Positions 3,605 through 12,301 of a DNA stretch of 43,714 nucleotides are shown one piece after another. The number at the start of each line of letters is the position of its first letter. Positions within the stretch are counted from its first letter, which is position 1. The DNA comes from a virus (taxonomy: Duplodnaviria > Caudoviricetes). The position numbers and the translations under genes were made by a program. Location: positions 1-43,714 of the IMG/VR virus record IMGVR_UViG_3300048853_000032; one strand, written 5' to 3'. A model generated the notes under the pieces. The model did not search any database. It saw nothing but the letters and a program-made list of their open reading frames with translations, and was not told the origin of the DNA.

Positions 3605-3936
3605 CAGAGCCCTCCTCCAAACTGTTGCCGATGATTGTGGGTGCCGTTGCCGTCCTGATCGGGCGTGTGGTCGGGCTCCTCGGCCGCTTCCTCGATCAGG
3701 TCGGAATATCCGTGCGCGATGTCGGTCGCGATGCCGTCGGCTTCGTACAGATAGCCATCGTCACCGCCGTCTGTGGCGATGATCTCGGCGATGGAATTCA
3801 TGAGCACGCGCCCGAGCCGCTGAAGGGACTCGCTGTGCTTGCGCGCATCGGTGTTCTCGATGAACTCGCGATCCGCATCGTCGACCGCATCACGCATCGT
3901 CTGGAAGGAACCGGCAATGTGAAGCCGCTTGTTCAT
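3604..3936 (-). CDS. Acidic hypothetical protein
   Basis: 110 aa; coupled within the operon. Confidence 0.75.
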   Translation of the reverse strand: MNKRLHIAGSFQTMRDAVDDADREFIENTDARKHSESLQRLGRVLMNSIAEIIATDGGDDGYLYEADGIATDIAHGYSDLIEEAAEEPDHTPDQDGNGTHNHRQQFGGGL

Positions 3937-4124
3937 GGCAGCAACTTCCTCGCCAGCTTGCGCAGCTCGGAGATAATCGTTGTCTGATCCATCCGCCGGG
4001 TCGCGTCACGGCGAAGCTGGTCATGAATGTCATCGCGCTTGAGGCGGACAAGAATGTCCTTGGCCTTCGCGTTCGGCGCCTGCGTTTCCAGATACGAGAT
4101 GATCTCCGAGCGGTTCACGATCAC
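3933..4124 (-). CDS. Hypothetical protein
   Basis: 63 aa; GTGA/ATGA coupling. Confidence 0.7.
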   Translation of the reverse strand: MIVNRSEIISYLETQAPNAKAKDILVRLKRDDIHDQLRRDATRRMDQTTIISELRKLARKLLP

Positions 4125-5221
4125 TCTCCGTCGATGATGCCTTGGACATAGGTGTTGGTCGCGTCGGCGTCGGCCTCGTCCTTCAGGCGCATGTTGTGGG
4201 CCCGAAGGATCGATTGCGCCGCGGTCGCGGTTACCTCGTTCGCGCCGACAAACTTCGGCTTGAACGCTTCGTGAGACGCGATCAGTCCGTCGCGGTCGAT
4301 CTCGCCGGCGAGCGTCTGGTGATACTCGGTCAGCAGCGCGCGATCATGAGTGGGGGCCGGTTCTTGGGAGGAGGAGAGCGGACCGGCCCCCGTATCAACC
4401 TGCCGGGAGGAGGAGGCAGGCCGATCTTGCGATGTGGATGTGTTCTCGCCGCGCGCCCAGGCGCGAAGCTTGCGGCCGCACTCCTCGTCCACCCGCTTGC
4501 CGGCGGGGAAGAACGGAAGGTGCTGGCTCTGGATCTTGCCGTGGACGGCCTGACCGTTCTCGATCAGCGGCACGCCGGGATTGTCGGGCGTGACCGTGAA
4601 GCTCATGGTCATCTCGTACATAAAGCGCTTCTCGCAGATCGGTACCCAACCGGCGCTTTCGATCGCGGTCTTCTCGCGGTTCGTCCTCTCGTCGAAGACC
4701 TTCACGAATTTGATCTTCTCTTCGGCGCGAAGGCAGAAAATGATGTAGGCGCGCACCTGGCGCAGCGGCGACATGAGCCGGGTCTTGTGCCGGGTCTTCG
4801 GCACCTTCCACGCCGGCGCGTTGAATTTGTCGATCTCCCAGCCCTCGAGGCGGTCGTAGGGCTTCCGCGCGAGGCGGGCCACCTCCTCGTCGTGCATTTC
4901 CTGCAGCCCGCCGACACCTTCGTATTCGTCGGACGTGCTGTCGATGATGATGACCTTCGCCCCTGCCCTCTCCGCCTTCTGGATCGCCTCGATGTAGGCT
5001 TCCGGCGTGAACGGCGGTTTCATGTCCATGTGCTTGAACTTGAACTGGTCGGCGTAGTGCAGCATGCGCTTCGCCTCGGTGTCGATGGCATAGATCGGTT
5101 CGCCCTGGGCGAGGCCGGTCGCCATCTTCAGCGCGGAGAAGGTCTTGCCGCTGCCGGATGCGCCGGCGATGGCGATCAATAGGCTGGTGTCGTCGCGGTA
5201 GGCGTCAACGAATTCAGACAA
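4121..5221 (-). CDS. Sak4-like / AAA_24 recombination ATPase
   Basis: Walker A GASGSGKT, IDTE and Walker B IIIDS; probable TTG start at 5221; near the exonuclease gene. Confidence 0.82.
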   Translation of the reverse strand: MSEFVDAYRDDTSLLIAIAGASGSGKTFSALKMATGLAQGEPIYAIDTEAKRMLHYADQFKFKHMDMKPPFTPEAYIEAIQKAERAGAKVIIIDSTSDEYEGVGGLQEMHDEEVARLARKPYDRLEGWEIDKFNAPAWKVPKTRHKTRLMSPLRQVRAYIIFCLRAEEKIKFVKVFDERTNREKTAIESAGWVPICEKRFMYEMTMSFTVTPDNPGVPLIENGQAVHGKIQSQHLPFFPAGKRVDEECGRKLRAWARGENTSTSQDRPASSSRQVDTGAGPLSSSQEPAPTHDRALLTEYHQTLAGEIDRDGLIASHEAFKPKFVGANEVTATAAQSILRAHNMRLKDEADADATNTYVQGIIDGE

Positions 5222-5235
5222 GGCGGGTCTCTTTC

Positions 5236-6165
5236 TCAGGCAGGAGTGTGAACGGAGGGCAAGCCGTTGCCGATGCTCGGCCGGGCAAGGTCCGGATGGT
5301 CGCGCATCCACTGCTGGACGAACCAAAGCTGTCCGCAGCCGCCGCCGATGTCGTCTTGTCCTGCCGGGTCGAACACGCGCACGTCATAGCCGCGGGTGAC
5401 GAGCTTGGAGGCAAATTCAGATGCGAGCTGGATCTGATGGCCATTTCTGGCTGGCATGCCTTCGTTGCGCTCGCAGATGACGCTTACCGTGGCATTCCAT
5501 ATCGACGGATCCAACGCGTCGAGCAGGTTGTCCGCGTCCTGATGAGATGAATTGTCGTCACCGGCGCAGTAATTGAAGAACGGCTTCCGTCCCGTCGCAT
5601 CGTGCCAAGCGGCGCCGACGGTCGCGATCTGCCTGAGCGTGAGTTTCTTCTTGAACGGGATAAGAGCGTTGCGGCGCTCGTCCGTCGATTGGTGCACGGA
5701 GAACTGCAGCCCAACCGTCGGGATTTGCTGGCTGATCGAATAGACCCAATCGTAATCGATGTCGGGGCCGATCGTGCTTATCAGTAGCGCCGCGTTCGGA
5801 TACTTGCCGTACAGCCCCTGAAGCGTGCTGATCATGCCCGACTTGTTGAGCAGGGGTTCACCCATACTCATGAACATGATCTGCAGGCGCTTCATCAGCA
5901 GTGGCTCAACGCCGGTGTCTGCAAGGCAACGGTCAACCTGGGCGACGATCTCCTCCGCGGAGAAGCTGCGAACGAAATGATCACCAGCACCGCAGAAACG
6001 GCAACCAACAGGGCATCCGCTCATCGTCGAGCAGCAAATCACCGTTCTCGTCAGATAGTCGGGGTATCGATAGAGTACCGCCTCAGCGACTCCGCTCTCC
6101 TTGGTGAAAACGTACTTGCTCACGTTTCCTTCGACGCTCGGAATAACCTTCACATCAGCAAACAT
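5236..6165 (-). CDS. RlmN/Cfr-family (class A) radical SAM methyltransferase-like protein
   Basis: ICCSTMSGCPVGCRFC (CxxxCxxC plus upstream Cys), FMSMGEPL, FSVH and DIGGGCGQL. Confidence 0.9.
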   Translation of the reverse strand: MFADVKVIPSVEGNVSKYVFTKESGVAEAVLYRYPDYLTRTVICCSTMSGCPVGCRFCGAGDHFVRSFSAEEIVAQVDRCLADTGVEPLLMKRLQIMFMSMGEPLLNKSGMISTLQGLYGKYPNAALLISTIGPDIDYDWVYSISQQIPTVGLQFSVHQSTDERRNALIPFKKKLTLRQIATVGAAWHDATGRKPFFNYCAGDDNSSHQDADNLLDALDPSIWNATVSVICERNEGMPARNGHQIQLASEFASKLVTRGYDVRVFDPAGQDDIGGGCGQLWFVQQWMRDHPDLARPSIGNGLPSVHTPA

Positions 6166-7175
6166 TAGACAGGCTCCACGATGGGGATGGGTTTGTAAGC
6201 TGTGCGCTCAAAGGCGGGCATCGGATCGAAGCCGAGTCCCTGAAGGCGCGGATCGTCGATCTCGCGGGCGCACCAGCGGGTGTCGAGGTAGGCGGGGAAT
6301 TCGGCCGTCACGATGTTCGTCGGGTAGCCGGGCCAATTGTTCTCGGCCATGCACTTCCGCCACATCAGGAAGGCGGCGCTGACCATCTTCGCACCGATAT
6401 CCTGCGCTGCCTGGTCGGTCTTCGCGACGGTGATTTCGAACGGCGGCGATTGCTCCTGCATCAGGAACAGGAAGTCGAGCACCATTTCGCGCCGGTCGAT
6501 TTCCGGAAAGATCTGGCGGATGACGCGGCGATAGAACGCGTCCTGAAAATGGTAGTTGTTGTTGTAGAGCGTGTTCTTGACCTTCTCAGGCGACACGCTG
6601 AGCTCCGTCGTCTTGTAGTCGACGATCGTGAGGCGCGGCTTAGTGATGTGGATTCGGTCCATGCGGATGCGAGTCCAGCCGCCGCAGGGATCTTTGACGC
6701 AAGCCGTCACTTCGTTGAACGGGTTTTCGATCGGTTCCTTGCTGGCGATGGCCCGCAGCGCTTCATGCTCGCTTTCGGCCAGCACGCGCCGGGCCTTGTC
6801 GACCATCGCAAGCACGGTCTCATAGTCGGGCGCCGGTACCGGGATGGCGCCGCGCTCCTGGGCTTCTCTGCGCTCTTCCTGCGCCTTCTTCGTCTTGAAG
6901 TCGCCTGCATCGATGACGCAGATTTCCGTCGGTTGCCGCAGCAGCATGGCGTGAGCGGCCGAACCGATTTCGCGCGTGCGGTCGTTCTTCTGTTCCTTGT
7001 CCGCCTGCTTCGTCAGCCGCGGGTGCGCCGAGAAGGCGTGCAGCGGGCTTTCCTCGATCAGCTTGAGCGCGATCGACCGGCTGAGGCTCGGATCGGGACA
7101 AGGATCGGCATGATAGGCGATCTCGCTCATGTGATAGAGGCCGGGCCGGTCGACGGTTTCGGAGTTGATGAGCAT
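6165..7175 (-). CDS. PD-(D/E)XK exonuclease (exonuclease VIII/RecE-like)
   Basis: YHADPCPDPSLSRS, IGSAAHAMLL, RMDRI, IVDYKTT, YHFQDAFY, WPGY. Confidence 0.88.
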   Translation of the reverse strand: MLINSETVDRPGLYHMSEIAYHADPCPDPSLSRSIALKLIEESPLHAFSAHPRLTKQADKEQKNDRTREIGSAAHAMLLRQPTEICVIDAGDFKTKKAQEERREAQERGAIPVPAPDYETVLAMVDKARRVLAESEHEALRAIASKEPIENPFNEVTACVKDPCGGWTRIRMDRIHITKPRLTIVDYKTTELSVSPEKVKNTLYNNNYHFQDAFYRRVIRQIFPEIDRREMVLDFLFLMQEQSPPFEITVAKTDQAAQDIGAKMVSAAFLMWRKCMAENNWPGYPTNIVTAEFPAYLDTRWCAREIDDPRLQGLGFDPMPAFERTAYKPIPIVEPV

Positions 7176-7177
7176 GG

Positions 7178-7495
7178 TCACGGTGCTGCCCCCTCGTTTT
7201 GCAGGGCGGCGAACCATTCACGAGCCTCGTCGAAGTTCTCCTCGGCGCGCTTCATCCATAGGTCACGTCGAGGCTCTCGCTTCTCCAATCCGACACACGC
7301 CAGCATCGCTACGCGTGCGGCCGCTACTGCGAGCTCTCCGACAATGATCTGGAATGCGAGTTCCATTGGAACGCCGGCATCGACAAGCTCCTCAGCCATC
7401 TGCATAGCCAAAGCCATCCGATACTTCGTGGTGATCTCGTCAGCACGCGCGCGTAGTTCAGGGGGGAGATTGAATGTTTCGGGCAATTCGCTCAT
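7178..7495 (-). CDS. Hypothetical protein
   Basis: 105 aa, helical; packed in the operon. Confidence 0.7.
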   Translation of the reverse strand: MSELPETFNLPPELRARADEITTKYRMALAMQMAEELVDAGVPMELAFQIIVGELAVAAARVAMLACVGLEKREPRRDLWMKRAEENFDEAREWFAALQNEGAAP

Positions 7496-7499
7496 CGGC

Positions 7500-7907
7500 T
7501 CAATCCCCGCTGTCCACGGTCATGTCGAGACCGCAATGCGCGCAACGGGCGGGATTCCAGCCTCGACGGGGATTAGCGCTCGCGCCGGCAACAGCCTTAT
7601 GCTTGCAGATAGCGAACGCCATCACGCGGGGCTCAGGCGTCGGGTAGCTGTTGCCGTATCGGACGGCGTAACCTTCGCCCGTCAACTCGCCGGCCTGATT
7701 GTGCGACAGAAAGAAATAGGTCCACTGCTTCCGGCCATCGACGTTCGAATAGCCCCACTTCGGAGTCCAGCAGTGGCCGACGGAAGCGAGCATGTTCAGG
7801 AAGCGCTGACCGTCGACTTCCTCGATATTCGGGAGCGCAACGGCGCCCTTCAGGATCGGCGCCAGGTCATCGTCGAGCGTGTAAACTTTGTTGGTGAGAG
7901 TGTTCAT
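7500..7907 (-). CDS. Hypothetical protein with a C-terminal Cys/His cluster
   Basis: 135 aa; CKH...CAHC; GGAGG RBS; ATGA coupling. Confidence 0.75.
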   Translation of the reverse strand: MNTLTNKVYTLDDDLAPILKGAVALPNIEEVDGQRFLNMLASVGHCWTPKWGYSNVDGRKQWTYFFLSHNQAGELTGEGYAVRYGNSYPTPEPRVMAFAICKHKAVAGASANPRRGWNPARCAHCGLDMTVDSGD

Positions 7908-8137
7908 GCCCGGCCTCCACCATGCATGCGCACAGCAACTCCCTCGAGTTCATCTGCGAAATTGCGGAGAACGGACGGAGAGACAGCCGCGCGGGCTCTC
8001 TCATCAACAACGGCGCACATAAGGCCGATAACTGCTGTGGCGAGAAGAGTCGGGCTCTCAGACTTAGCGACCGCCATCAGTAGCGCCTTCATGTCGATGC
8101 CAGCTTCCGCGAAAACTTCCTGCGGTGTCTGGGTCAT
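7904..8137 (-). CDS. Hypothetical protein
   Basis: 77 aa from ATG 8137; GGAGG RBS; ATGA coupling. Confidence 0.7.
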   Translation of the reverse strand: MTQTPQEVFAEAGIDMKALLMAVAKSESPTLLATAVIGLMCAVVDERARAAVSPSVLRNFADELEGVAVRMHGGGRA

Positions 8138-8310
8138 ACCCGCGCCTCCGCTGCAAGCTGGCGCTCGTAGTGGCACATGGTCGCGGTGACGTTCAGAGCG
8201 AACAGGCCAAGGGCGAGAATCGAAGCGAGGAGAATGATGGTGTGGGCGCGGGTGACGAGGCTTTTCATCAAGTCGCGCTGTTCGGCATTAAGGGACACAT
8301 GATGGGTCAT
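8134..8310 (-). CDS. Small membrane protein, first gene of the leftward early operon (not in the ORF track)
   Basis: 58 aa MTHHVSLNAEQRDLMKSLVTRAHTIILLASILALGLFALNV...; AGGAGA RBS; ATGA overlap with the next gene. Confidence 0.75.
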   Translation of the reverse strand: MTHHVSLNAEQRDLMKSLVTRAHTIILLASILALGLFALNVTATMCHYERQLAAEARV

Positions 8311-8333
8311 GGCGCTCTCCTATAGACACAAGG

Positions 8334-8376
8334 ATCGTACCCATTATGTGTATAACCGTCAACCCCAATATGTGTA
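8334..8376 (-). promoter_or_regulatory. PL-like promoter with two repressor operators
   Basis: TTGACG-N17-TACGAT on the minus strand; operators TACCCATTATGTGTA (8338-8352) and ACCCCAATATGTGTA (8362-8376). Confidence 0.8.
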
Positions 8377-8433
8377 CATCAATGAAATGGGCGCGGCTGT
8401 ATCCTCACCTCCTCTTGAGGAAAGGGGGCTCAA

Positions 8434-8646
8434 ATGACGGATCGATATACGAAAACTGTCCTGACGATTATCGCTGCCGCTCTGTGTATTCTGGTCTTCC
8501 AGAATGGCAGCAAGCAGGCCCTGGCCCTTGGCCCGAGCGAATGCGGCACAAGCGACGTGACGCCATGCTTTGTCAGGGTGAAAGGTGCTGTCGAGGTTTA
8601 CGGCGGCGGCGGGGGAATGGATGTGTTCGTGAAGAACTGGCCTTAG
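8434..8646 (+). CDS. Small membrane-anchored or exported protein
   Basis: 70 aa; N-terminal hydrophobic helix; strong RBS; converges on cI. Confidence 0.7.
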   Translation: MTDRYTKTVLTIIAAALCILVFQNGSKQALALGPSECGTSDVTPCFVRVKGAVEVYGGGGGMDVFVKNWP

Positions 8647-9212
8647 ACGCGCGGCGTCATCGCCGTCACCTTAGCGGCCCAAACCAATTCGGCGTTCTCG
8701 ATCGGGCTTTCCGTCTGCGAGAGAAGGTGAAACTTGCCGGGCTCGCTGCCTCGCATCAGCTTCTTCACCAGAACCTTGCCTTCCAGGGTCTCGACGACAC
8801 ACAGCTGCCCCATGAGATCCGGCGTTACCGGGTTGCGCACGTCATCGTAGAAGACAAGCCATTGATGGAAGAATGGGCCAACCGAGTCGCCGTTGATCTC
8901 TAGGCCGACGGTGTCGTCATTGCCGTTCGGCGGGAGAGGCACTTCCTCGAAATCTTCATGGGCATCAGCATAGAAGTGCGCCTCGGCGCCAGCTCCAACG
9001 CGGCCGATAATGCGCGTCGTCTTGCGCTGTGAAATGATGTCGGCCTCGTCGACGTTGAACGCTCGAGCTGCGCGAGCGATGTAATCCTCAGTCAGACGGC
9101 GCTCGCCGCGCTCCAATTTCACATAGAAACTGCGCGAAATCATCATCAGGTCCGCGGCCTGCTGGAACGTCAATCCGGAACGGGTGCGCAGTAATTTCAG
9201 ATTGTTAGCCAT
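8643..9212 (-). CDS. cI: CI-type repressor (XRE HTH plus S24 autopeptidase)
   Basis: HTH at the N-terminus, VGAG cleavage site, GDSV Ser and VKKL Lys; start trimmed to ATG 9212. Confidence 0.92.
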   Translation of the reverse strand: MANNLKLLRTRSGLTFQQAADLMMISRSFYVKLERGERRLTEDYIARAARAFNVDEADIISQRKTTRIIGRVGAGAEAHFYADAHEDFEEVPLPPNGNDDTVGLEINGDSVGPFFHQWLVFYDDVRNPVTPDLMGQLCVVETLEGKVLVKKLMRGSEPGKFHLLSQTESPIENAELVWAAKVTAMTPRV

Positions 9213-9302
9213 AATGTGTACCTTTGCCCCAAAGGGGCTCGGCTGTCGCGCCCCAATTTGTGTATGAAATTTGTTGACGGATGTACCCATTCCGGGGATA
9301 CT
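9206..9302 (+). promoter_or_regulatory. OR operator region and PR promoter
   Basis: TTGACG (9274)-N17-GATACT (9297); operator-like 15-mers at 9206-9220, 9250-9264 and 9284-9298 resemble the PL operators. Confidence 0.8.
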
Positions 9303-9311
9303 TACGGCATC

Positions 9312-9515
9312 ATGAAACTCAATTCGTATCTCAAAGACCCCGACAATCTCGACGAGGCAGCTTTCGCCGCAGCGTGTGGCGTCAGCGTCTCGTGCGTCCG
9401 CAAGTGGCGCTATGGTGACCGGTTCCCCCGCGCTCACCACCTGCTCAAGATCGAGGCCGTCACCGGTGGCCTGGTCACTGCGAATGACTTTGCCCAAGCG
9501 GCTGAGGTGGCCTGA
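9312..9515 (+). CDS. cro: Cro-like HTH protein
   Basis: 67 aa FAAACGVSVSCVRKWRYGDRFPR...IEAVTGGLVTANDF; divergent from cI. Confidence 0.85.
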   Translation: MKLNSYLKDPDNLDEAAFAAACGVSVSCVRKWRYGDRFPRAHHLLKIEAVTGGLVTANDFAQAAEVA

Positions 9516-9889
9516 TGAGTGCACAATCTACTTTTTTTGGCGCAGGTGGATTCACCAAGAACCGCAACAGGATTCGGTGTGTTGACGCCGTGTGCGACAT
9601 GGCTCGCCGTCTGTGGCCTTCGAAAACTGCCATCAACCTGTCGAGCCGCGCCGAAATATCGAAGCGCGCCGCCGAGCTCTGGCTCGAGGGCCGAACCGAG
9701 CCGGGTGCCGATGCCCTGGTCAACCTTCTCCGCTCCGATGCCGGCTTCGCGCTGCTGCAGTCCATCATGGAAGGTTCCGGAACACGCTGGTGGAAGGAAT
9801 TCGAGCGCGGCGTCCTGATCGCGGAACTCGAGCAGAAGCAGGAATTCCTGCGTCAGCAGCTCGATCAGCTCAAGGAAGGAATGAAGTGA
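9515..9889 (+). CDS. Putative CII-position regulator
   Basis: 124 aa, HTH-like with a C-terminal coiled coil; directly after cro. Confidence 0.65.
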   Translation: MSAQSTFFGAGGFTKNRNRIRCVDAVCDMARRLWPSKTAINLSSRAEISKRAAELWLEGRTEPGADALVNLLRSDAGFALLQSIMEGSGTRWWKEFERGVLIAELEQKQEFLRQQLDQLKEGMK

Positions 9890-11270: not shown

Positions 11271-11774
11271 ATGAGCGAATGGACAGACGAGCGTATCGAG
11301 CAACTGAAAAAGCTGCAGGCGGGCGGACATAGCGCCGCTCAGATCGCGAAGATGCTCGGCGGTGTCACCCGCAATGCCGTCATCGGCAAGATCCACCGTC
11401 TCGGCCTTGATCCGATGGCAAAGCCGCGTGCATCTTCCATGCCGCGCGCCGTGAAGATGATGATCAAGAAGGCGCCTAAGGCCGTGGCACAGCCGAAGGT
11501 GAAGCCTGCCGCTCCTCCGCCTCCTCCGCTCCGCCCGGTCATCGAATCCGTTGCGCGTCCGAAGCCGCTGTTGAAGCGGATCAGGGATGCCGATTGGGAT
11601 GGTCAGCACGAATGCCGCTGGCCTGTCGAGGGCGAGAAGGAAAACACGCGGTTCTGCTGCTATCCTGTCTCGGGTGACTCCTCCTACTGCGAGTATCATC
11701 GCCGTGCAGCTCGCGGACACGGCACTGAAAGCGAGCGCCGTGTTGCTCCTCTGCCGGTCAAGAGGGTCGCGTGA
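11271..11774 (+). CDS. gcrA: GcrA-family transcription regulator
   Basis: WTDERIEQLKKL...SAAQIA...GGVTRNAVIGKIHRLGL and C-terminal CRWP...FC...YCEYH. Confidence 0.92.
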   Translation: MSEWTDERIEQLKKLQAGGHSAAQIAKMLGGVTRNAVIGKIHRLGLDPMAKPRASSMPRAVKMMIKKAPKAVAQPKVKPAAPPPPPLRPVIESVARPKPLLKRIRDADWDGQHECRWPVEGEKENTRFCCYPVSGDSSYCEYHRRAARGHGTESERRVAPLPVKRVA

Positions 11775-12301
11775 TGGGAAAGCGATCCTCCTTCGCTCGT
11801 ATCGATCGTGACGCGTATCAGACAATCGATCCGCGTGCCGTCGTTAAGCTGATCCCGCATTTGCGTGGCATCCGCACGTTTGCCGAGCCTTGTGCCGGTG
11901 AAGGCTATCTTGTCGGCGAGTTGCAGCGTCACGGCCTCATCTGCGCCTATGAAGGTGACATCACGACGGGGCTCGATGCGCTTGTGCATCCCTTCGACGA
12001 GGAAGCCGTCTTCGACGCGATCATCAGCAACGTGCCGTGGGAGCGCTCGATCCTTCACGCGATGATCCTGCGCTTCCAGGCGATGGCGCCGACGTGGCTC
12101 CTGTTCGATGCCGATTGGGCCCACACCAAGCAGGCCGCGCCGTTCCTCGATCAGTGCAGCCACATCATCAGCGTCGGCCGGCTGAAATGGATTCCCGGTT
12201 CGCCGCACACCAGCAAGGACAATTGCGCCTGGTACCGCTTCCACGCTCAGCACGTCGGCGGTCCTCGCTTCGTCGGGCGTGAGGTGAAGGCGCATGCTTG
12301 A
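11771..12301 (+). CDS. Small SAM-dependent amino-methyltransferase (probably DNA N6-adenine)
   Basis: YQT, FAEPCAGEG (motif I) and IISNVPW (variant motif IV). Confidence 0.8.
   Translation: MMGKRSSFARIDRDAYQTIDPRAVVKLIPHLRGIRTFAEPCAGEGYLVGELQRHGLICAYEGDITTGLDALVHPFDEEAVFDAIISNVPWERSILHAMILRFQAMAPTWLLFDADWAHTKQAAPFLDQCSHIISVGRLKWIPGSPHTSKDNCAWYRFHAQHVGGPRFVGREVKAHA

Follow-up and report, generated by a model that had tools for sequence, protein, structure and literature searches.

The question raised by this locus is what a short enzyme resembling the rRNA methylases RlmN and Cfr acts on when it is encoded by a phage, between two genes of the recombination type. To our knowledge, RlmN and Cfr are the only class A radical SAM methylases that have been characterised, and both act on RNA. 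The DNA analysed, hereafter the window, is a complete virus record of 43.7 kb (43,714 nucleotides) with direct terminal repeats. Since Pfam- and PHROG-type searches recognise an integrase, a CI-like repressor, GcrA, a terminase, and capsid and tail genes, the window represents a temperate phage. An alphaproteobacterial host is probable, because the nearest copy of the gene in a cellular genome, at 80% identity, belongs to a Rhizobium. The gene itself (P0001; 5236..6165, minus strand) encodes 309 aa, in which the initial annotation had noticed a CxxxCxxC motif together with ICCSTMSGC, FMSMGEPL and DIGGGCGQL, and all are indeed there (the last three at residues 43-51, 98-105 and 272-280). The ORF is real and under purifying selection: dN/dS is 0.07-0.14 against six of nine close relatives (synonymous sites are saturated in the other three), which argues that it is not a chance reading frame. 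Its GC3 is 0.73 versus 0.82-0.86 in the flanking genes, the range over 14 measured genes being 0.67-0.86.

Upstream, a RecE/exonuclease VIII-like gene (6165..7217, minus strand; PHROG 412, E 3.5e-50) shares base 6165 with it, its stop and the ATG of the RlmN-like gene overlapping by this single base as TAATG, in agreement with the first reading. Downstream, an AAA_24-type ATPase gene (4121..5221, minus strand; AAA_24/25 matches; PHROG 1366, 'unknown') starts with TTG at 5221, 14 bp beyond the stop of the RlmN-like gene; the neighbour is thus as described, and the name 'Sak4' is one that we presume to fit this AAA_24/25 ATPase. The CI-like repressor gene (8643..9209, minus strand; HTH and peptidase S24, by domain and PHROG matches) is followed by a leftward promoter-like site (8362-8334, minus strand) overlapped by two operator-like repeats (8340-8352 and 8364-8376, minus strand), and a third 13-bp operator-like copy (9252-9264) lies between cI and the cro position, ahead of a rightward promoter-like site; all of these sites are consensus matches only. 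Because the 13-bp motif has three matches versus 0.04 expected and no terminator-like sites were found in 3800-9600, expression of the RlmN-like gene from a repressor-controlled early leftward operon is plausible; the CI-controlled PL proposed earlier keeps this strength, the control itself being consensus-based. Between cI and the leftward promoter lies a 70-aa ORF with a hydrophobic N-terminus (8434-8646, plus strand, convergent to cI), possibly a membrane or immunity protein, and the rightward early operon carries, after GcrA, a DNA methyltransferase-like gene of 176 aa (11771-12301; PHROG 799). Searches of this phage found neither a tRNA gene nor a PF04095 (NAMPT/nicotinate phosphoribosyltransferase) gene. 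In a search of sequencing runs for signs of expression, a single run, possibly the source, contained the stretch in full, and 15 others shared 0.05-0.11 of its sequence words.

The link to the recombination module that the neighbouring genes had suggested does not survive comparison with other phages. The gene is present in none of 64 RecE/Sak4 loci of related phages (56 Sak4-like and 8 RecE, partly on the same contigs), and the RecE of the window adjoins one of the 123 groups of the family, namely its own. In the closest sister phages (L277, L285), the base that overlaps the recE stop begins another gene. The interval from recE to the Sak4-like gene (5222-6165 in the window), of which the ATPase gene forms the downstream edge, serves sister phages (L276, L277, L279, L285, L338) as a cargo slot, 0-2.8 kb long, that accommodates a coiled-coil, HNH-type or PAPS-reductase-like gene (the latter in L279), a radical SAM gene of a second kind (L285), or nothing. 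In other temperate phages, the RlmN-like gene sits at other early positions. A function in recombination was rejected on these grounds, and the recombination-module context is incidental.

The answer has therefore to be sought in the protein and in its relatives. Residues were compared in an alignment that set 123 family groups (formed at 80% identity out of 235 full-length loci) against 22 RlmN, 2 Cfr and 5 further sequences; loci with <40% identity or <230 aligned residues and re-fetched duplicates were left out before the groups were counted. Both catalytic cysteines announced by the initial annotation have their equivalents in this alignment: C44 (6034..6036, minus strand) is the resolving cysteine (RlmN C118, Cfr C105), a C in 122/123 family groups and 22/22 RlmN, and C277 (5335..5337, minus strand), in the family-specific loop PAGQDDIGGGCGQL, is the methyl-carrier cysteine (RlmN C355, Cfr C338), present in 122/123 groups. 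The [4Fe-4S] motif CxxxCxxC, evident in both sequence and alignment, is formed by C51, C55 and C58 (5992..6015, minus strand). In RlmN numbering, 122-123 of the 123 groups retain E105, C118, C125/129/132, M176, G179, E180, S211, S233, H235 and C355, which correspond here to E28, C44, C51/55/58, M99, G102, E103, S130, S156, H158 and C277; E28 (also Cfr E91), M99, S130, S156, H158 and F57 (RlmN F131) occur in all 123. The MGMGEP of RlmN reads MSMGEP (5854..5871, minus strand), G177 having become S in 123/123 groups. Profile searches return the radical SAM domain PF04055 just below its cut-off, the RlmN profile TIGR00048 at 89.2 bits versus a cut-off of 290, with the match confined to profile positions 80-342, and the Cfr profiles (TIGR04432/NF000424) at 62-67 bits versus cut-offs of 530-550, TIGR04432 itself scoring 62.5 versus 550. 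A model built by AlphaFold on an alignment of 59 sequences (pLDDT 89) begins with the beta'-extension, and the structure prediction leads to the same relatives, Foldseek ranking RlmN (6fz6, 3rfa, 5hr7) and Cfr (9p0p) first (TM 0.59-0.75), with TM ~0.5 for other radical SAM enzymes. Compared with RlmN, to which it is ~20-25% identical, the protein carries an extra C-terminal helix and tail. It is, as far as its sequence can tell, a class A radical SAM methylase with the whole catalytic apparatus intact and a putative activity.

The RNA side of the enzyme is what has changed. The N-terminal RNA-binding helical domain of RlmN, suspected from the start to be missing, is absent in 123/123 groups and in the model. 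In Cfr this domain anchors the enzyme on rRNA (10.64898/2026.02.27.707579), and an earlier study reports reduced activity of the R25A/Q28A mutants (PMC2836569). RlmN R206, a contact to tRNA G29 (PMC5130265), is A in 109/123 groups (A125 here); R344, found in 22/22 RlmN, is F in 121/123 (F265 here); N307 is S (S228 here) and E278 is N, each in 123/123, with a less certain register for N307, since residues 220-245 (N307/N312, including the N312 equivalent) were placed by MAFFT and are placed otherwise by HHalign, which confirms the rest. The serines S103, S151, S153 and S187, which in the Cfr-rRNA structure hold the phosphate on the 3' side of A2503 (10.64898/2026.02.27.707579), are replaced by V42, Q95, M97 and L128, each nearly invariant. 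Cfr R184 and R327 are also replaced, and the equivalents of Cfr Y97 and Y252 are retained (Y34, F/Y196). Residues newly invariant in the family are Y32, Q95, M97, Q154, C200, T226, C231, R263, P267, Q270, D271 and Q284, and the median net charge of the family is -5 versus +1.5 in the comparison. By alignment, then, the N-terminal domain and most RNA-contact residues are lost. These side-chain changes neither prove nor exclude adenine as the base recognised, because Cfr reads adenine through backbone atoms (10.64898/2026.02.27.707579).

Phylogenetic trees place the family in a single clade apart from both RlmN and Cfr (FastTree support 0.95); an IQ-TREE quick tree with 20 of the 123 family groups gives SH-aLRT values of 98 for the family and 96 for RlmN plus Cfr without it. 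The objection that the protein might nest within host RlmN therefore does not apply, and the initial proposal of a changed substrate is probably right for an intact class A methylase that lacks the N-terminal domain and stands outside host RlmN. The family is mobile and mostly viral: with this protein alone as query, 222 viral stretches were matched, and the family occurs in at least 460 metagenome stretches (in the part of the set scanned), in 82 stretches among 185,579 species genomes, spread over many phyla, and as 13 close matches in 50,697 phage records. The ESM Atlas offers unnamed radical SAM clusters only, the top three of which are mostly viral. The idea of a plasmid-borne Cfr-like gene was rejected, no close relative being found among 72,556 plasmids. 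We found no published description of the family; the supplements of the bioRxiv NARP and aRES preprints may already list the gene. Viral members of the Cfr/RlmN family are mentioned only as existing (PMC2836569); a radical SAM or RlmN-like component goes unmentioned in the searched main texts on NARP (10.1101/2024.02.11.579819), NARP3 (PMC13464706), aRES and RyR (PMC13232231), as do the words 'radical' and 'RlmN' in the main text of a survey of viral NAD-ADPr functions (PMC9503650).

The main lead to a substrate comes from the gene neighbourhoods of these relatives and is invisible from the window. Flanks of up to 6 kb were considered, a group being positive if any member was positive, and the NAD queries were taken from family loci. 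A core NAD gene is found in the flank of 35/123 groups (25/78 viral, 10/45 cellular only), within 700 bp in 31, one positive group (L021) having merely an isochorismatase-family gene; in the controls, the figures are 0/56 for Sak4, 0/8 for RecE and 3/18 for RtcB (1 within 700 bp). The 25 viral groups give the gene a recurrent place inside phage NAD-reconstitution operons, though not in this phage, and 88/123 groups have no NAD gene in the flank. On the tree, the NAD trait requires 24 changes versus a shuffled mean of 27.9; being so scattered, it does not represent one inherited operon. The arrangements are intimate. In the second-nearest group to this protein (L006, 67%), the order is nadE-RS-NMNAT-pncA, with RS for the radical SAM gene; in L044, L060 and L065, the gene stands between NMNAT-Nudix and NAMPT, and in six related loci no radical SAM gene separates NMNAT-Nudix from NAMPT, at a distance of 44-250 bp, a gap that the gene occupies in L060. 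Bacterial operons include pncB-pncA-RS-nrtR in Ornithinimicrobium (L113) and pncA-pncB-RS-nadE-(2nd rSAM)-nadD-cinA-nadK-nrtR in Bacilli (L123), and an overlap with NadA occurs in L153. A second short radical SAM gene is thus seen in Bacilli NAD clusters (L123:8821-9522; L119:3561-4169). In all five Saccharibacteria that carry the gene, pncB lies no more than 2 kb away, three or four of them sharing one locus; in the sample of that order, a NAPRTase match occurs in 11/251 genomes, a count at least one copy too low. Relatives fused to a Nudix hydrolase (P0141, a single representative) and to a histidine phosphatase (P0121) point, on sequence grounds, to a soluble phosphorylated nucleotide.

Other counts set the scale of this association. 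PF04095 occurs in 33/77 phage records with the gene and in 22/38 of those >100 kb, raw shares, uncorrected for how common the domain is in phages of similar size, and 8/9 near-complete records <100 kb with the gene are without PF04095. NARP1 and NARP2 together are reported in 5.4% of sequenced phages in the corresponding preprint (10.1101/2024.02.11.579819). In a separate metagenome set with many short contigs, an NAD gene accompanies 5/34 new groups, in all five within 700 bp. Seven NAMPT-bearing control phage records are without the gene, and in Bacilli NadE is found in 52/201 genomes and the gene in only 2/201, one of these copies neighbouring a resolvase in a 2.8-kb locus free of NAD genes; most NAD operons do without it. 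In large phages, accessory genes of this kind gather near NAD genes in any case, as the RtcB controls indicate. Of 80 loci in a gp32 control, 7 had NAD genes; these seven are the ones closest to the seed, which itself came from an NAD locus, and most of the remaining 73 are short fragments. The gp32 loci served for synteny comparison only and not as background.

Because the relatives are found repeatedly inside NAD recycling operons, NAD or a related small nucleotide would be the likely substrate. Mapping of the Cfr-rRNA contacts onto the protein shows that the 3'-phosphate serines are now hydrophobic (V42, M97, L128) and that contacts on the 5' side are kept or gained (Y34, S228, R263, R40). 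As mapped, the pocket would fit an adenosine that bears a pyrophosphate at its 5' end and leaves the 3'-OH free, like that of NAD/ADP-ribose, and it is the loss of the 3'-phosphate site, the retention of the 5'-side contacts and the operons together that make NAD/ADP-ribose the best candidate; an adenosine with a free 3'-OH equally describes tRNA A76 and dATP. We infer, at about an even chance, that the enzyme puts its methyl group on a ring carbon of NAD+ or of a closely related nucleotide (ADP-ribose, NaAD, NMN/NaMN). Within this proposal, adenine C2/C8 would be the tentative first choice of position, holding the larger share of that chance, and the pyridine ring a somewhat weaker second. 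We know of no NAD pathway step that requires C-methylation.

By analogy with RlmN/Cfr chemistry, as presented in PMC9692996, one SAM would methylate C277, a second SAM would give the 5'-deoxyadenosyl radical, the resulting C277-CH2 radical would add to an aromatic carbon of the nucleotide, and C44 would resolve the cross-link. Speculatively, the methylated product may resist or inhibit SIR2/TIR-type NADases, or a methylated ADPR signal may no longer be read, and the phage might thereby be helped against NAD-depleting bacterial immunity. Here, expressed from the early leftward operon, the enzyme would work on the host pool without partners. A role in shielding the phage from NAD-consuming defence enzymes, or in inhibiting them, would explain both a lone early gene in small phages and an optional NARP add-on in large ones. 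A more specific version, of which we are rather doubtful, is that ring-methylated NAD (or ADP-ribose fed into NARP) cannot be cleaved by SIR2/TIR/RES NADases or poisons them, giving phages and small parasitic bacteria a chemical counter in place of a protein inhibitor.

Alternative substrates have to be weighed against methylation of NAD. RNA comes to mind at once, since the only solved relatives act on it and the equivalents of Cfr Y97 and Y252 are kept; by docking differently, the enzyme might methylate tRNA A37, the tRNA 3' end, a phage tRNA or rRNA A2503, for example shielding tRNA from anticodon nucleases. Some relatives do lie inside tRNA clusters (L081, L039, L042, L072), tRNA genes are within 700 bp in 8/123 groups, and RtcB is nearby in two. 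However, tRNA genes near 26/123 groups are not above the controls (9/56 and 6/18), so that a tRNA-gene association was rejected, and the protein is net acidic, without the N-terminal RNA-binding domain and with R206, R344 and N307 replaced. RlmN itself refuses an isolated anticodon stem-loop (PMC5130265). Among 26 cellular genomes with the gene, 20 also have a canonical RlmN, and the other six are those of five Saccharibacteria and one Woesearchaeote; a role as RlmN substitute in Saccharibacteria was nevertheless rejected, the gene being present in 0/250 other genomes of that order. A tRNA or ribosomal target, as put forward in the initial annotation, is not favoured, because the RNA-contact residues are lost and tRNA genes are not enriched, and we consider methylation of RNA unlikely; among the options listed there, 'nucleotide adenine' comes closest. 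The association with NAD genes could also merely reflect shared anti-defence islands, with the enzyme methylating another adenine signal (cyclic oligoadenylate, cGAMP, SAM-AMP or gcADPR). In many temperate phages the gene stands alone in the early region, the RtcB controls are likewise near NAD genes, and macro-type, NADAR and ADP-ribosylglycohydrolase genes are found near some relatives. This account is rather improbable, given that the gene is translationally coupled in chromosomal pncA/pncB/nadE/nadD/nrtR operons, which are not typical phage anti-defence islands, and that no cyclic-nucleotide genes recur among the neighbour clusters seen in at least three groups.

DNA adenine, or dATP/dAMP, would offer a 2- or 8-methyl-dA mark against restriction. 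The gene is often found among replication and recombination genes, and DNA methyltransferase genes flank ~13/123 groups (9 N6/N4, 4 C5) versus 1/56 and 0/18 in the controls, with queries taken from family loci. Yet this is improbable for an acidic protein that has no DNA-binding domain and has lost the 3'-phosphate pocket; neighbour clusters contain no recurring kinase or polymerase partner, and the NAD operons would be left unexplained. Slightly less probable still is the C-methylation of an aromatic residue in a protein, either an NAD-pathway enzyme or a host defence protein: the tight operon coupling with NAMPT/PncB and NMNAT and the rebuilt, more hydrophobic pocket would suit it, but the operon partners vary (NARP1, NARP2, PncB, NadE, NadA), the gene is often alone, and the Nudix and phosphatase fusions favour a soluble nucleotide. 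That the gene is an ordinary captured host RlmN, as the database labels of relatives imply (23S rRNA (adenine2503-C2)-methyltransferase), or a decaying remnant, is very improbable in view of the score far below the RlmN cut-off, the separate clade, a dN/dS of about 0.1 and the fact that most hosts keep their own RlmN.

Placed beside known systems, the enzyme that we propose to act on NAD or a close relative is, judging from sequence, an uncharacterised variant of a known enzyme class and neither RlmN nor Cfr. With RlmN (E. coli YfgB; TIGR00048; PDB 3RFA, 5HR7, 6FZ6), which makes m2A2503 in 23S rRNA and m2A37 in tRNA, it shares the fold (Foldseek TM 0.71-0.75), the beta'-extension and the catalytic residues from CxxxCxxC to C355, including G179/E180. 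In contrast to RlmN, it is without the HhH2 N-terminal domain, has R206, R344, N307, E278 and G177 replaced, and belongs to a separate, mobile and mostly viral clade with an NAD-operon context. With Cfr (PDB 9P0P), which makes m8A2503 in 23S rRNA and confers antibiotic resistance, it has in common the same catalytic set and the Y97/Y252 equivalents, but not S103/S151/S153/S187, R184 and R327, and nothing suggests that it is a resistance gene. Relatives lie inside operons of the NARP1 (Adps and Namat) and NARP2 (Nampt and Nmnat) types, to which NARP1-AP and NARP3 are to be added among the systems compared, whereas this phage has the enzyme without a NAMPT or Namat gene. In NARP1-AP, the accessory phosphatase Adpp is likewise placed in the operon (10.64898/2026.01.28.702374). 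Far down the Foldseek list, with TM ~0.5, stand PDB 9DFU and 6Q2P, which we take to be of the viperin type. Viperin-type radical SAM enzymes act on a free nucleotide in virus-host conflict and provide an analogy; unlike the enzyme described here, they use no methyl-carrier cysteine in their chemistry, and they are antiviral proteins on the host side, not phage-borne ones.

The existence of a branch that is widespread in phages, with its chemistry intact and its pocket rebuilt, points to a new reaction. If the proposal is true, methylation of NAD or ADP-ribose would yield a new natural form of the cofactor and amount to a new move in the NAD-centred conflict between phages and bacteria. The annotation of relatives as rRNA methyltransferases is also corrected, a label under which they could be misread as Cfr-like resistance genes.

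Some further observations concern single members of the family and its sister lineages. The copy of the actinobacterium Ornithinimicrobium groups with the copies of Saccharibacteria (SH-aLRT 95), and L103, L110 and L113 are all beside pncB-pncA and nrtR; the gene may have passed between a lineage of epibionts and one of host type. Sister lineages without the resolving cysteine were also encountered (L272:3830-4705 and 5220-5402; L274:3827-4651 and 4667-4789; L273; L271), with no NAD genes within 4 kb of any of these four loci. Pectobacterium phage Arno162 and Moorella phage MTATph1 encode the C-terminal AACGQ loop in an ORF of its own, 40-60 aa long. P0122-P0125 are fused to a C-terminal domain of 250 aa that may be class I SAM methyltransferase-like, according to a lead from the ESM Atlas only. 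In P0126, P0127 and P0128, inteins with LAGLIDADG endonucleases split the region of the iron-sulfur motif.
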